DNA of 64,000 bases from the IMG/VR virus record IMGVR_UViG_3300034760_000060, positions 6,541 to 70,540 of that record. One strand, given 5' to 3'. Each line of letters opens with the position of its first letter. Positions within the stretch are counted from its first letter, which is position 1. The notes beneath the pieces are model-generated. The model did not search any database. It had not been told where the DNA came from and worked only from the letters and a program-made list of their open reading frames with translations. Source of the stretch: a virus. The position numbers were made by a program, and so were the translations under genes. This document shows, piece after piece, positions 2,747 through 61,804 of the stretch.

Positions 2747-3217
2747 TCAAGACTTCGTGCCGCGCGGCGGCGGTTCGTGAAACTCGACGCCATGCTGGCC
2801 GCCGAATGCGTGTACCTGGTCCAAGTGCTGGGCAAAGCCCTTGATCGTCAGATCGGTGGTGCTGCCGACTAAGATGCGGCTGCCGTCCGGGCCGAAGTCC
2901 CATTTGCGGTAGTCTTCGCGCCGGCACAGCTCCGGGTCATACTCATCTGGCAAAAATTCCTTCTTGAAGTGCTCATGCCACACCTCGGCGCTGTACTGCC
3001 GCTGCCCAACCCATACCTGCTCTGCGATGTCTTTGAGCGGCCCGACCCAAAGTAGGGCGTTCTGGTCCAGCTTCCGGGTCTTTACCTCTTCGCCCAGGCG
3101 GAACTCCAACGGCTTCTTTTCATCCAGCGGCGCGTTGCGCAGCACCGCTATCGCGCGCTCCACCTGCTCCGCTTTACGCAGGAGCACCTTGCGCACTTCG
3201 AACTTGGGGCGCGTCAT
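2747..3217 (-). CDS. ninB: NinB/Orf-family recombination protein
   Basis: RKLDQNALLW...WHEHFKKEFL...STTDLTIKGFAQHLDQVHAFG...GVEF matches the NinB family pattern. Confidence 0.85.
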   Translation of the reverse strand: MTRPKFEVRKVLLRKAEQVERAIAVLRNAPLDEKKPLEFRLGEEVKTRKLDQNALLWVGPLKDIAEQVWVGQRQYSAEVWHEHFKKEFLPDEYDPELCRREDYRKWDFGPDGSRILVGSTTDLTIKGFAQHLDQVHAFGGQHGVEFHEPPPRGTKS

Positions 3218-6260: not shown

Positions 6261-6743
6261 TTATTTGCCCCTGTTGTTTTCGAGATAGCCATGCTTCACT
6301 TCAGCCTCTTTCCGAGCCGCCACTGCCGCATCAAACGTTTTAAAATGTCCGACGTAGAGGCTTGCGCAGCTGACGGAATAACCATTTTTATGATTGGTGA
6401 CCCCGGCAACTCCTGTTCGATTGTTTTTTGCGATGCGGCGGTTTCTTTGATTGCCGGAAAGCGTCGTTATCCGTAGATTCGCTAACCGGTTATTAAGTCC
6501 GTCTCCATCAAGGTGATCGATACACATGCCATCAGGGATGGCGCCGTTGACCATCTCCCAAATGACTCGGTGCGTGTAGTGCCGCTTGTGGAACAAGACG
6601 AATGACCTGTAGCGTCCGTCGTGTTTTACTGATCCGACTTCTTGGCCCACCGCTGTTTTTGGCCCTGGCCGTTTCACCTTCCATGACAAAACCCCTGTGA
6701 TTTCGTCGTAGCGCAAAAACGCATTCCAATCTGTACTCATCAA
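6261..6743 (-). CDS. HNH homing-type endonuclease with AP2-like C-terminus
   Basis: HRVIW...IDHLDGDGLNNRLANLR; lower GC than its neighbours. Confidence 0.9.
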   Translation of the reverse strand: MMSTDWNAFLRYDEITGVLSWKVKRPGPKTAVGQEVGSVKHDGRYRSFVLFHKRHYTHRVIWEMVNGAIPDGMCIDHLDGDGLNNRLANLRITTLSGNQRNRRIAKNNRTGVAGVTNHKNGYSVSCASLYVGHFKTFDAAVAARKEAEVKHGYLENNRGK

Positions 6744-11335: not shown

Positions 11336-11377
11336 AGTATAGGACAACTATACATTCAATGTAAAGAGAAACTATAC
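11336..11377 (-). promoter_or_regulatory. pL promoter with tandem operators OL1/OL2
   Basis: GTATAG-GACAA-CTATAC (11337-11353) and GTAAAG-AGAAA-CTATAC (11361-11377); minus strand TTTACA-N18-TATACT. Confidence 0.8.
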
Positions 11378-11669: not shown

Positions 11670-12242
11670 ATGAATTTGCAAGAATATTTGCGCGATTTTA
11701 AGCGCTGGCCAGCGACACTTACTGCTGCCGAGTTCGCCGTTTCTGGCGTGCCAGACATGGGGCGTAAGTGGTTGAAGAAGTATCGATATCTTGAGGTCGA
11801 GGCGGATGCAATGCGAGCCGCCTTTGATGCAGAGAGCCAGGATGGTGGGAGGGTGATCATTCGGTCGGGCAGGGTGCTATGGCGCACCACAGAAAAGCCA
11901 GTGTTCGCCAGGCCGAAAGCGTTGGATCAAGGCGGGCGTCCGAGGCCTGCGCGCCGCATCAAGGTCAGCAGCGAGAAGCTGACGCACGCGATCGTGAACG
12001 CCGACGCGTTTCTAGAGTCATTCGAATGGCGCCAGGCTCGCTTTGCAACACTACAGCGGTATGGGCGCAAGTGCCAGTGCTGCGGTGCTACTCCAGCGTC
12101 TGGTGCGGTGATGCATGTGGATCACATTAAATCTCGCCGACGGTTTCCGGAGTTAGCGCTCGACCTCGAAAACCTCCAGATACTTTGCGATGCATGCAAT
12201 CACGGCAAGTCGAATCAAACGGCGGATTTTCGATCTGAGTAG
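11670..12242 (+). CDS. HNH nuclease (C-terminal CxxC-HNH-CxxC) in the immunity region
   Basis: CQCCG...HVDHIK...NLQILCDACNHGK. Confidence 0.85.
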   Translation: MNLQEYLRDFKRWPATLTAAEFAVSGVPDMGRKWLKKYRYLEVEADAMRAAFDAESQDGGRVIIRSGRVLWRTTEKPVFARPKALDQGGRPRPARRIKVSSEKLTHAIVNADAFLESFEWRQARFATLQRYGRKCQCCGATPASGAVMHVDHIKSRRRFPELALDLENLQILCDACNHGKSNQTADFRSE

Positions 12243-13326: not shown

Positions 13327-13554
13327 CTAGGCAAGTGAATCAAGCACCGTTTGCAGCATTGCTTTGATCTCGCTGAGTTCGGCCGGCACATGGTCGGGCG
13401 CTCCAGCTCGTAGCCGGACAAGAATTTCCGTATTCATGGAGTGTCCATTGCGCTCGGCTTCGGCTCGAATCTCAGCGTGAAGGTCAGGCGGCAGACGCAA
13501 AGCTGTCTTGATGAACTCGGCTTGTGTTGTTTTTTTGAAGGGCGGTGTCGTCAT
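13327..13554 (-). CDS. Arc-family ribbon-helix-helix DNA-binding protein
   Basis: TALRLPPDLHAEIRAEAERNGHSMNTEILVRL. Confidence 0.85.
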   Translation of the reverse strand: MTTPPFKKTTQAEFIKTALRLPPDLHAEIRAEAERNGHSMNTEILVRLRAGAPDHVPAELSEIKAMLQTVLDSLA

Positions 13555-14008
13555 CGCCCCATTTTTTCACAGGCTTAAACGCTGTAGTTGTAACCGCCTT
13601 CACCAATGGAGGCACTACAAGCCATACATGTCTTTTCGTAAGGGCAATCTTTCGTAATTTCAGGCAGAATAAAATTCTGAAATGAAAATCATCCCAGAAC
13701 TACTGATGGTATGCGTGAGATTCGGCAATATTGCTCAGCGCACGCCCGCTTCGCAGAATGAAAACTCACGGATATACACTATATTTTTGGTACTGGCAAG
13801 ATCAAAAAAAGGCTGCTAGAATTAGAAAATTAGATAACAAAAATTGCCTTGCGTCATCTACATGGTGGGCTTAATCTTAAGTTGCGCCCCAAGCCATGTC
13901 GCTGACACTCTCGGACCCTAGCACCCGCTCCGAGATGTCAAATTTCAAACCGCCAGATGTGTTGCGGGTAGGATAACTAGAAGTTTTCAGTCTACTCGCG
14001 CCCAATCA

Positions 14009-14197
14009 ATGCTCGGAAGAAATTTAATGCATAGCTCAGAAAAGATGGAAGCGCTCACAGCAAGTGAGCGGATTTTGGTCGAGAACTATCGCCACATCAG
14101 GGCGGACAAGCGTGAGATGTTTATTGACATGTCACGAAGCTATCGCCGCAACTACCCCGTGGAGTCGCCCCGGCTACAGCTTGTTCCTTCGAAATAG
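14009..14197 (+). CDS. Small protein resembling the CI C-terminal helix
   Basis: LTASERILVENYR...KREMFID aligns without gaps to CI LDETEATLIAIYR...DRATLID. Confidence 0.65.
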   Translation: MLGRNLMHSSEKMEALTASERILVENYRHIRADKREMFIDMSRSYRRNYPVESPRLQLVPSK

Positions 14198-14722
14198 AAG
14201 GCTTCCAATGTTTTGGGCGGCAGGAAGTAGGTTCGCTTGATCGATTAGGGTGGCACGGTCAGCGCCTTCTGATTCTCGGTATATCGCGATAAGAGTAGCT
14301 TCAGTCTCATCTAGGCGGTCAAGCCAAGTCAAAGCGTGCCTTGCGCCAATGTGCTGCTCAGCGTCGACTTCAGCTTCCGGACTTTTGATGGTCATGGTTA
14401 AGCGCGGAGGAGATGGCGCCACTTTCGCCGCCTCGTTTAAGCCTGAGGGAGCCAGTTCCACTTTCGCCGCTTGTCCGCCCCTCCCAGCGAGATCAGCAAG
14501 CACGTCATCCGGCAAGCCCTTGCCTGTTATTTTGACAATTCCAACAATCTGCTGAAGGCTCGGCTCGTGCTTTTCGGTTTCCCAATGGGAAATGTTGGCT
14601 CTGCTGTTGCCACGCGACTCCCCTAACTCCAGCGCGAGCTTCGTACCCAGCTCGGCACCGGAGAGGTCGGCCTCCGTTCGGGCCTCCCTGATCCACTTCG
14701 CAATTTTTTCTTTTAGCTTCAT
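14174..14722 (-). CDS. cI: CI-like XRE repressor, no S24 peptidase domain visible
   Basis: Likely start MKLKEKIAKWIREAR; HTH LSGAELG...RANISHWETEKHEP; divergent from cro. Confidence 0.85.
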   Translation of the reverse strand: MKLKEKIAKWIREARTEADLSGAELGTKLALELGESRGNSRANISHWETEKHEPSLQQIVGIVKITGKGLPDDVLADLAGRGGQAAKVELAPSGLNEAAKVAPSPPRLTMTIKSPEAEVDAEQHIGARHALTWLDRLDETEATLIAIYRESEGADRATLIDQANLLPAAQNIGSLLFRRNKL

Positions 14723-14731
14723 AGCCGGATC

Positions 14732-14796
14732 GTATAGCCAATCTGAACAAAATTGGGGTAGAAAAACTTGACATCTATGTATAGAGTTCCTATACT
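14732..14796 (+). promoter_or_regulatory. pR promoter and OR operators
   Basis: TTGACA(14768)-N17-TATACT(14791); operator GTATAG-AGTTC-CTATAC (14779-14795); weaker GTATAG-CCAAT-CTGAAC (14732-14748). Confidence 0.85.
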
Positions 14797-14826: not shown

Positions 14827-15093
14827 ATGACCCCCGAAGAAGCCCTTGATAAAGCAGTTTCCTACGTTGGAACCGTGCAGAACATGGCAGATCACCTCGG
14901 TGTAACCAAGGGGGCCATCAGCCAGTGGAAGCAAGAAGGCCGCCGCATCCCTGCGGAGCACTGCCCAGCAATCGAGCGGCTTACTGCCCGAGGCGTCCGC
15001 TGCGAGCAAATGCGCCCGGATGTCGACTGGGAGTATCTGCGCCTTGTCGTCGCCGCCAAGCCGCCTCGAAGTCGCGCAAGCCCACCACCCTGA
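14827..15093 (+). CDS. cro: Cro-like (YdaS family) regulator
   Basis: MADHLGVTKGAISQWKQEGRRIPAEHCPAIERLT...EQMRPDVDW. Confidence 0.9.
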   Translation: MTPEEALDKAVSYVGTVQNMADHLGVTKGAISQWKQEGRRIPAEHCPAIERLTARGVRCEQMRPDVDWEYLRLVVAAKPPRSRASPPP

Positions 15094-18149: not shown

Positions 18150-18176
18150 AGTTTGAAACTTACCTATGGAGTAGGC

Positions 18177-18920
18177 ATGAACGAGATTGTACACCACAAG
18201 CATATTGACGTCGCCGGCGTCGCTATTGCGCAGGATCAGGCGGGGCGCTACTGCCTGAACGATTTGCACAAGGCGGCGATGCTAGCTAAGAAGGCGACCG
18301 AATCACATCGACCCGGCAACTTCCTAAAAACGGCGGATGTTGTGAAGTTTGCTCAAGTTTTAAGCGATGCTACGAATGTAGCACCGGTCGAGACAATCAA
18401 GGGCGGCACACGTCAAGGTAGTTACGGCGTCGAATTGATCGTCATGCGTTACGCCGCTTGGATCGATCCCGCGTTCGAAGTCCAGGTGTACCAGACCTTC
18501 CAGGCCGCCGCGAATGGAACGCTGCAGAAGTTCATGGACGACCAGATCCGCGCGCAGTCCCGGCAAGCGGCCCGGCTGGAGGCGCCATATCTCACTGACG
18601 CCATCAAGCATCGCCGCAAGGTGCTGGGCAAGCCGACCGCGCACTACCACTTTTCCAATGAGTTCGACCTGATCAACCGGGTCGCGCTGGGCAAGTCGGC
18701 GAAGGCCTACCGCGAAGCGCACAGCATGACGTCAACAGAGGCAATCCGCGATCACCTGACCCCGATGGAGATCCGTTGCATCGAGCACCTCCAGCGCGCC
18801 AACGCCACGATGATCGACCTGGGCTACGACTTCGAACAACGCAAGACCGAACTGCACAAGCTGTACGTGCTGCGCCACTCTGCCGGCCTGATGGCCGAAG
18901 TTGAAAGGATTGAATCATGA
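18177..18920 (+). CDS. KilA-N domain DNA-binding protein (antirepressor-like)
   Basis: QDQAGRYCLNDLHKA...GSYGVELIVMRYAAWIDPAFEVQVY. Confidence 0.9.
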   Translation: MNEIVHHKHIDVAGVAIAQDQAGRYCLNDLHKAAMLAKKATESHRPGNFLKTADVVKFAQVLSDATNVAPVETIKGGTRQGSYGVELIVMRYAAWIDPAFEVQVYQTFQAAANGTLQKFMDDQIRAQSRQAARLEAPYLTDAIKHRRKVLGKPTAHYHFSNEFDLINRVALGKSAKAYREAHSMTSTEAIRDHLTPMEIRCIEHLQRANATMIDLGYDFEQRKTELHKLYVLRHSAGLMAEVERIES

Positions 18921-30027: not shown

Positions 30028-30043
30028 CTGTGTATACGAACAG
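30028..30043. promoter_or_regulatory. LexA (SOS) box at the pR'-like promoter
   Basis: aCTGT-GTATACGA-ACAGt; TAGAAT -10-like element at 30053-30058. Confidence 0.65.
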
Positions 30044-61048: not shown

Positions 61049-61445
61049 GTTTGTACCCAGAATTGAATTTATTAAACTGCTGCGATTGATTTGCGCAGCG
61101 CCTATCAATGGAATATTGACAGGTAAAGTTTATATGACCCGTCGAGTGAAGGTTTATCAAAAGTCAATCGCACTCACCTACTAAAAACTTTCAGCAATTA
61201 GATTTCAATGAGGAAGCTTTCCGAGTTAACATGCGCGAGTATATATTGCTTTCTTTGTTTGGCGTGAAGCGAGTATGCGCTAGCAAGCACATCAAATAGA
61301 ATTTGCTTACCCTAGCTATTACAAAGATTTACTCGGCTGGGATTACAGTTAGACGGGGGTTCCGCTGGGGAGTTCCCTGGCGTTCGGGCGGGGCCGTGTC
61401 GCGGTCGATTTCACGTAGGCCTGAAAGCGTCGAGGATGCGATATA

Positions 61446-61461
61446 CTGTACGCATGTACAG
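61446..61461. promoter_or_regulatory. LexA (SOS) box
   Basis: taCTGT-ACGCATGT-ACAGta, overlapping the ATG at 61454. Confidence 0.85.
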
Positions 61462-61804
61462 TATCGTGAAAAGATTGAGAGTCCGGGGAGCGCGCCGGCC
61501 AGACCGAGACATCTTCGCCGACCCTGGCGCGGCAGGGCAGCTGACGATGTGCCGGGTTGAGGGATGGACCGAGCTGAAGCTGTATGCATCGGGGACTGAT
61601 GCGCGTCCGGAGCCGTTGATACCGGTGCTTATTGACCCGGTTCTAGTCGTGATGCACGGGAGCAAGATGCTGTTTCGAGGGATGGAGCGTCAGGGCGCCC
61701 AAGGCGATCCGAACTCAGCGACGATATTGCAAGAGTGGTCAGTCCAGATCGTGACCGAACCGCAGCCGGGGGTGGCGCAGCAGTCTCATCGGCCGCCGTC
61801 ATAA
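61454..61804 (+). CDS. Putative SOS-inducible small protein
   Basis: MYSIVKRLR...LFRGMER...LQEWSVQI; start codon inside the LexA box. Confidence 0.75.
   Translation: MYSIVKRLRVRGARRPDRDIFADPGAAGQLTMCRVEGWTELKLYASGTDARPEPLIPVLIDPVLVVMHGSKMLFRGMERQGAQGDPNSATILQEWSVQIVTEPQPGVAQQSHRPPS

Follow-up and report, generated by a model that had tools for sequence, protein, structure and literature searches.

Sequence comparison points to a two-helix motif common to the tail of a prophage CI repressor and a small convergently encoded protein, a candidate antirepressor

SinR is an XRE-type helix-turn-helix (HTH) repressor that oligomerises by means of its C-terminal helices, and the approximately 57-aa SinI carries similar helices and forms a heteromer with it, in which the repressor–repressor contacts are replaced (10.1101/2025.11.23.689978). 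In the arbitrium phages of Bacillus, the repressor AimC has an HTH that a flexible connector joins to a helical C-terminal domain for oligomerisation. The very small helical antirepressor AimX binds to the latter domain and blocks both oligomerisation and DNA binding; AimX is turned on by AimR/AimP signalling, and its gene is easily missed by annotation (10.1101/2025.11.23.689978). Phages of Vibrio and Aeromonas possess transcription factor–small open reading frame (TF-smORF) modules, in which a transcription-factor gene lies divergent from a gene for a protein of ~50-80 aa, and cI is inactivated without proteolysis and independently of SOS (PMC10432266). Short repressors of the DicA/Gifsy type (GfoR, DicA), which have no Ala-Gly/S24 cleavage apparatus, are inactivated by the small antirepressors GfoA/GftA and Rem (PMC3121763; 10.1101/2023.04.14.536235). 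Overall, the induction of prophages with non-cleavable repressors is understood for few systems. Here, we analysed a 64,000-nt stretch of viral DNA (positions 6,541 to 70,540 of the IMG/VR record IMGVR_UViG_3300034760_000060; hereafter, the window), the content of which is that of a lambdoid prophage of a soil bacterium, the host being a proteobacterium. We focused on its cI gene, encoding a repressor without an S24 autoprotease domain, and on a small gene convergent to it.

The locus resembles SinI/SinR in that a helix motif is common to the repressor tail and the small protein, and differs from it in that the repressor is the CI of a proteobacterial prophage, the two genes are convergent and overlapping, and the interaction is predicted from sequence. 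The Pfam family SinI had no match in CI or in 20 members of the small-protein family (E <= 10), and PDB profile searches returned no SinR or SinI chain. Unlike the AimX/AimC system, the locus has no evident arbitrium genes, its neighbours being an Arc-like gene and a structured leader, and it belongs to a different host phylum; moreover, while no sequence likeness of AimX to AimC has been reported, here the two families share a motif. As in the TF-smORF modules, a putative regulatory gene (Arc-like) is divergent from the 56-aa gene next to cI, an arrangement also present in the related loci L011, L012, L015 and L016; the vicinity of the small gene in the window contains no LexA box. The factors of the TF-smORF modules, however, are HTH activators, situated at the telN-repA/par loci of plasmid-like phages, where cI is often autoproteolytic, and the smORFs have neither homologues nor reported likeness to cI, whereas here the small gene overlaps cI. 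The earlier note on this DNA had proposed an unusual lysis–lysogeny switch, a description that we cannot uphold, since the same logic is established for SinI/SinR and has been reported for AimX/AimC (10.1101/2025.11.23.689978) and non-proteolytic small antirepressors are described in Vibrio phages (PMC10432266). With the logic already known, what appears to be new is an uncharacterised small-protein family of proteobacterial prophages that has a motif in common with its presumed target and an antisense overlap with the gene of that target.

The core of the resemblance is an ungapped alignment of 27 residues between CI 137-163 and residues 16-42 of the 62-aa form of the small protein, with 8 identities and a BLOSUM62 sum of 30, exactly as given in the earlier note. 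The best ungapped segment between CI and the small protein scores 36, compared to 23.2 +/- 3.6 for shuffled sequences, and is reached by 4 of 500 shuffles; BLASTP of CI against the small protein yields no alignment. The profile–profile comparison of the two families that had been proposed gave a match in the same register: hhalign, comparing 20 small proteins with 10 repressor tails, returned an E-value of 2.4e-5 and a probability of 75% over 29 columns. When a hidden Markov model (HMM) built from 13 repressor tails was run against ~950 six-frame decoy ORFs of the window together with 18 small proteins, its top 14 non-self matches were all members of the small-protein family. In reciprocal tests, the HMM of each family recognised the other family in related loci, with the small-family HMM matching XRE-repressor tails in L015, L016 and L021; a 131-aa XRE protein from another genome has such a matching tail. 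The small family also aligns weakly with residues 80-106 of E. coli DicA. Helices are predicted in the same register for CI and the small protein, and in this register a positive score is obtained for each of the 64 combinations of small proteins and CI tails taken from eight loci. The two motif segments are encoded by separate stretches of DNA, ~100 nt apart (see the table), and therefore the 24-nt overlap of the genes cannot create the resemblance, which rules out a similarity forced by antisense overlap. Judged from these comparisons, a single two-helix motif carried by both the small protein and the CI tail is supported clearly above chance.

The synteny is likewise consistent with a relation between the two genes. 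As the earlier note had suggested checking, the small gene does recur beside hairpin-tailed repressors, namely in eight independent loci (class A: the window, L011, L012, L014, L015, L016, L026/L027 and L028). There, it is convergent to an HTH repressor of 125-182 aa with a hairpin tail, the two genes overlapping at their 3′ ends by 21-57 nt in every case (8/8). The repressors of this class end in L-E-R-L-D-x-x-E-x-x-L-I-x-x-Y-R ... R-x-x-I and are ~20-30% identical to the CI of the window, with 52-66% identity among the CI proteins of the window, L011 and L012. Beyond the repressor, a Cro/YdaS-type gene is found in four of the eight loci (the window, L011, L015 and L028), while in the remaining four the next gene has no family match or the contig ends. 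An Arc-like gene occupies the other side in five of the eight loci and is missing in L026; its position is kept in L011, L012, L015 and L016, and also in L061, a locus with a distant CI relative (P0010) that retains the layout of Cro, CI, convergent small ORF and Arc.

Further members of the small-protein family fall into a second type of locus (class B: L017, L029, L030/L031 and contig C179 of this genome), in which the small gene is preceded on its own strand by other small genes and is placed downstream of Arc-like genes where these are present. Directly upstream of it in L017, L030 and C179 is a gene whose product, 100-140 aa in length, contains the motif once or twice and has no HTH, whereas L029 has a weaker family match one gene further upstream. 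AlpA or integrase genes are close by in L017, L029 and L030. Two of the upstream genes (L017:2621-3004 and L030:2085-2504), located in integrative elements, encode proteins of 127-139 aa without an HTH and with two tandem hairpin motifs, and overlap the start of the following small-family gene by 4 nt. Contig C179 (L024/L025; e.g. L025:1402-1683, 2446-2751, 2930-3145) carries two further paralogues and a 101-aa motif protein downstream of two Arc-like genes, and the two HMMs both match its 71-aa paralogue (1e-10 for that of the small family, 2e-6 for that of the repressor tails). In L020, the motif is found at the N-terminus of a 118-aa chromosomal protein.

By the criterion of sequence conservation, the small ORF is a real, conserved protein-coding gene. 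It also occurs in a prophage of Massilia (L011) and on a contig of metagenomic origin (L012), where it is likewise convergent to and overlapping with cI and remained uncalled in both, and the ratio of nonsynonymous to synonymous substitution rates (dN/dS) among the window, L011 and L012 is 0.14-0.37, with the differences mostly at third codon positions. The earlier note had described a 62-aa convergent ORF at 14009-14197; while the gene itself stands, its start probably does not. The 56-aa form beginning with ATG 14027 is likelier, because L012 has a 1-nt indel between ATG 14009 and ATG 14027 that puts the first ATG out of frame, GGAAG lies 7 nt upstream of ATG 14027, and it is the 56-aa form that is on record for this genome. 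Among 1.84 billion representatives, a profile search identified 23 proteins at E <= 0.001, of which 17, apart from this genome's own protein, were retrieved; these are 57-77 aa long. The family motif reads L-T-x-x-E-R-x-L-I-x-N-F-R ... L-S-x-x-Y-x-R-T-x-P ... R-L-x-L-V, and the structural model of the small protein (mean predicted local distance difference test score, pLDDT, 81) consists of helices 12-22 and 26-42 followed by an extended P...R-L-x-L-V tail.

Searches for described relatives of the small protein were largely negative. No match was found in Pfam, PHROG or NCBIfam, and the ANT/pRha/Bro domains of the P22 Ant type were not detected with Pfam and PHROG. Foldseek of the model against the PDB gave nothing below E 2.8, PDB profile searches with the small-family and CI alignments produced chance-level rows only, and a search of the ESM Atlas returned only unnamed clusters. 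Neither the small protein nor CI had a tblastn match in 50,697 phage records. A protein search by word index with the small-protein alignment recovered solely this genome's own protein, and no family member was found in ~900 further genomes at the levels of genus, family, order and class, the only additional copies being two paralogues in this genome. The small protein as a homologue of Rem or GfoA was rejected, the small-family profile giving no alignment with E. coli Rem.

The earlier note was right in describing CI as a repressor without an S24 autoprotease domain. Peptidase_S24 (PF00717) has no match in CI at E <= 1, the family search returning weak HTH_3/HTH_31 matches only. In the AlphaFold2 monomer model, obtained from 10 sequences, the helical HTH domain (residues 1-85, pLDDT about 90) is followed by a disordered stretch (84-128), the hairpin helices 139-150 and 153-165 (pLDDT about 86) and a disordered tail, so that past residue 85 there are just helices and disorder, and no beta-rich domain. 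Without an S24 domain, the contacts between CI subunits are presumed to come from the C-terminal hairpin (residues 137-165), which on this model would be the oligomerisation element, and a non-proteolytic route of inactivation would be needed. Homologues of CI are scarce (8 in 5.8 billion clusters), the nearest, at 66% identity, coming from Massilia sp. CCM 8734. One metagenomic protein, P0008 (251 aa), combines a CI-type HTH domain (70% identity over the HTH part) with Peptidase_S24 (PF00717) in place of the hairpin tail, and P0008 and CI represent a natural C-terminal domain swap on one DNA-binding domain. Because P0008 has S24 there on the same HTH domain, the hairpin appears to occupy the position of an oligomerisation domain. 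No convergent small gene was seen among the called genes beside the S24-type repressor with a CI-type HTH, which is weak evidence.

In its general features, the window CI fits the short repressors of the DicA/Gifsy type, being a short XRE-HTH protein with no cleavage apparatus and with a divergent Cro/YdaS-like gene. The DicA subfamily model NF007257 matches the class-A repressors P0036 (1.4e-8) and P0034 (3.3e-4), both below the model cut-off, and the window CI has no NCBIfam match. The target class is the same as that of the Gifsy and Qin antirepressors, but the latter are under LexA control and have their genes well away from the immunity region.

Our best explanation, plausible if somewhat short of probable, is that the 56-aa protein modulates the prophage repressor, most likely as a small antirepressor that pairs with CI through the hairpin and is expressed in opposition to cI. 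On this account, CI would act as a dimer or higher oligomer on 17-bp palindromic operators, with subunit contacts made via its C-terminal two-helix hairpin; the hairpin of the small protein would pair with that of CI and replace the second CI subunit, and the resulting mixed complexes would lose binding to, or cooperation on, OR and OL. Expression of the small gene would be opposed to that of cI in cis through convergent antisense transcription, with possible extra gates in the structured leader, in which the ribosome-binding site is paired, and in the divergent Arc-like regulator. We favour the antirepressor reading because of the combination of the shared module, the conserved linkage, a CI without S24, the SinI/AimX precedent and a fitting regulatory setting; the part of the hairpin in CI oligomerisation, the binding of the small protein to CI, the derepressing effect and all of the regulation are what we infer from sequence. 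A complex prediction for CI 120-182 and the small protein reached a score of 0.20, the mark being 0.32, and is counted neither for nor against binding.

Several observations weigh against this reading. First, cognate pairs of small protein and CI tail have a mean BLOSUM sum of 29, versus 33 for non-cognate pairs, and the aligned segment gives no indication of pair-specific matching. Second, the role of the hairpin in CI oligomerisation is presumed: the CI model is that of a monomer, and PDB profile searches revealed no solved relative. Third, no hairpin-tailed HTH repressor is seen near the class-B loci L017, L029, L030 and C179, and therefore the family is not tied only to CI. Fourth, the 79-aa convergent ORF of L061 (L061:2810-3049, minus strand) resembles neither the small family nor the tail of its own CI significantly. 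Finally, the leader and the promoter-like site of the small gene are limited to three close loci (the window, L011 and L012). The first of these points also bears on the claim of the earlier note that the small gene copies the C-terminal helix of CI: the motif is shared, but since cognate pairs show no greater likeness than non-cognate ones, it is an old module common to both, and a recent copy of the tail of its own CI is ruled out.

A more far-reaching version of the antirepressor explanation is possible, though we consider it doubtful. In it, L-x-x-x-E-x-x-L-I-x-x-[YF]-R would be a portable pairing module, found in the tails of DicA-like repressors, in free proteins of 56-77 aa and as tandem repeats, and the free copies would be poison subunits, constituting the first SinI-type antirepressor family in proteobacterial lambdoid prophages. 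An obligatory antisense overlap, together with an RNA leader, would wire this family to cI, and, with three copies in this genome, prophages and integrative elements that share a cell might engage in cross-talk.

A protein that binds CI by the shared hairpin might, however, also assist it, by stabilising CI, altering its cooperativity or operator choice, or protecting it from turnover. The shared module and the conserved linkage apply to such a helper just as well, and the small gene is situated with cI within the OL–OR block, the usual place of genes expressed in the lysogen. We nevertheless regard this as unlikely, since the convergent overlap predicts opposed rather than joint expression, and SinI and AimX, which are known to mimic a repressor oligomerisation domain as stand-alone proteins, are antagonists. 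An explanation of similar, low probability is that CI and the small protein do not bind each other at all, and that the hairpin instead docks a third partner (for example the Arc-like protein, a factor of the host or another protein with a hairpin), with the small protein competing for this partner or serving a separate circuit, as where it follows tandem-hairpin proteins in integrative elements. The class-B loci, with their tandem hairpins and separate small genes in the apparent absence of a hairpin-tailed repressor, agree with such docking, as do the occurrence of the motif in unrelated settings (the N-terminus of the L020 chromosomal protein) and the lack of extra similarity in cognate pairs. 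Strict adjacency and 3′ overlap in eight loci are, on the other hand, most simply understood as a direct functional pair, and no candidate partner is conserved across all loci, even the Arc-like gene being missing in L026.

Regulation may also take place at the RNA level. Face-to-face promoters, as in coliphage 186, and antisense RNA, as with sar of P22, are established elements of phage switches. The immI region of P22 comprises Arc, Mnt, Ant and the sar antisense RNA, with Ant, of ~300 aa, belonging to the ANT/pRha families and immI lying far from c2. Our locus is similar to these in that an Arc-family gene adjoins the gene of a presumed antirepressor and, judging by the gene layout, the arrangement is convergent and antisense; it differs from P22 in that the small protein has no Ant-type domain and that the small gene overlaps cI. 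As the 3′ overlap leaves no room for a terminator, each transcript would run antisense into the other gene, and such read-through may be relevant to regulation.

The small gene is preceded by a promoter-like site and a leader of unusual conservation. The extended -10 of this site is kept in L011 and L012, and in both loci the leader is >85% identical, compared to 52-73% for the flanking proteins, and is more conserved than the coding sequences. Its hairpin at about 13909-13938 shows two compensatory changes, only the plus strand folds better than shuffled sequences (z -2.85, compared to -0.77 for the minus strand), and the predicted fold places the ribosome-binding site in a paired region. The leader has no match in Rfam, and an exact-word scan of viral contigs found it only in the known Massilia prophage; 28 word matches in metagenomes were dismissed as chance, falling within one unrelated gene. 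Two further candidates were rejected as well: a 13-nt sequence match of the leader (13933-13945) to the PR -35 region does not exceed chance and shows no covariation in L012, and a perfect 13-nt inverted repeat (14100-14112/14468-14480) is not conserved in relatives.

The main role of the small gene could also lie in cis, with its convergent transcription interfering with cI or providing an antisense RNA to the cI 3′ end, cI read-through acting reciprocally, and the peptide being minor or unrelated. The conserved 3′-3′ overlap with no terminator between the genes, together with a leader that is structured on the plus strand and more conserved than the coding parts, speaks in favour of such a role. 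As the sole explanation it is improbable, however, given that the peptide is under purifying selection and that the motif and the R-L-x-L-V tail are kept across the family, even in loci without an overlap. A role of the RNA is compatible with the antirepressor reading and does not exclude it. Lastly, that the resemblance reflects nothing but generic amphipathic helices, the small gene being an accessory unrelated to the lysis–lysogeny switch, agrees with the failure of BLASTP, an hhalign probability of just 75% and the absence of a Pfam, PHROG, NCBIfam or PDB relative suggestive of function, but is very unlikely in view of the clean separation of the family from ~950 decoys in reciprocal HMM tests, the recurrence of cross-matches in independent loci and a synteny with hairpin-tailed repressors that is kept despite low sequence identity.

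Table. Positions of the features discussed, numbered from the first nucleotide of the window
Feature	Position	Strand	Details
cI	14174-14722	-	182-aa repressor: HTH domain, disordered linker, C-terminal helix hairpin; S24-free
CI XRE-type HTH DNA-binding domain	14468-14722	-	residues 1-85
CI two-helix hairpin	14228-14314	-	residues 137-165; motif L-D-x-x-E-x-x-L-I-x-x-Y-R ... R-x-x-L-I
Small gene	14027-14197	+	56 aa; 62-aa form begins at 14009
Small-protein segment aligned to CI hairpin	14054-14134	+	residues 10-36 (56-aa numbering)
cI/small-gene 3′-3′ overlap	14174-14197		24 nt; genes convergent
Promoter-like site of small gene	13793-13822	+	CTGGCA, 18 nt, TG-n-TAGAAT
Small-gene 5′ leader	13830-14026	+	~200 nt, structured; includes hairpin at about 13909-13938
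Arc-like ribbon-helix-helix gene	13327-13554	-	75 aa; divergent from small gene
cro-like gene	14827-15093	+	YdaS/P22_Cro family; divergent from cI
OR operators	14732-14796 (region)		GTATAG-N5-CTATAC; 14779-14795 (perfect) and 14732-14748 (2 mismatches)
PR-like promoter	14768-14796		TTGACA-17-TATACT; between cI and cro-like gene
OL operators	11337-11377 (region)		same palindrome as OR; 11337-11353 (perfect) and 11361-11377 (1 mismatch)

The putative operators delimit the immediate surroundings of the two genes. Four GTATAG-N5-CTATAC sites across OR and OL were matched by zero shuffles, and the palindrome is also present in the cI–cro spacers of two related loci. OL bounds the cI-side block that contains the Arc-like gene and the small gene, which are separated by an AT-rich spacer of ~450 bp. 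Between the OL and OR operator pairs lie, besides cI, the small gene and the Arc-like one, the genes of two small proteins that are exported or reside in the membrane, and an HNH nuclease gene in counter orientation (11670-12242).

Two other regions of the prophage may be connected with repressor inactivation. LexA boxes (CTGT-N8-ACAG) occur in the window just at 30028 and 61446, and none is near the small gene. The second belongs to a near-consensus box, TACTGT-N8-ACAGTA (61444-61463), which overlaps a TATACT -10 hexamer and precedes an 85-aa ORF without family (61547-61804, plus strand) at the far end of the prophage, a position resembling that of the SOS-controlled antirepressor modules of the Gifsy type. 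This LexA box and ORF may provide an SOS route for inactivating the non-cleavable CI, in the manner of a Gifsy-type module. The early right operon encodes a 255-aa KilA-N domain protein (18153-18920, plus strand) with a faint C-terminal match to the ‘Derepression’ family (E 0.054), another possible antirepressor-type gene of this prophage.

Most gene callers miss small genes of this kind, as exemplified by the uncalled copies in L011 and L012. Our analysis offers a defined, hitherto unannotated small-protein family, a candidate target for it in the CI hairpin, and a sequence signature by which both partners may be found elsewhere. If the antirepressor explanation is true, the principle of SinI and AimX would extend from Bacillus to the lambdoid phages of proteobacteria, with the addition of a cis-antisense layer.

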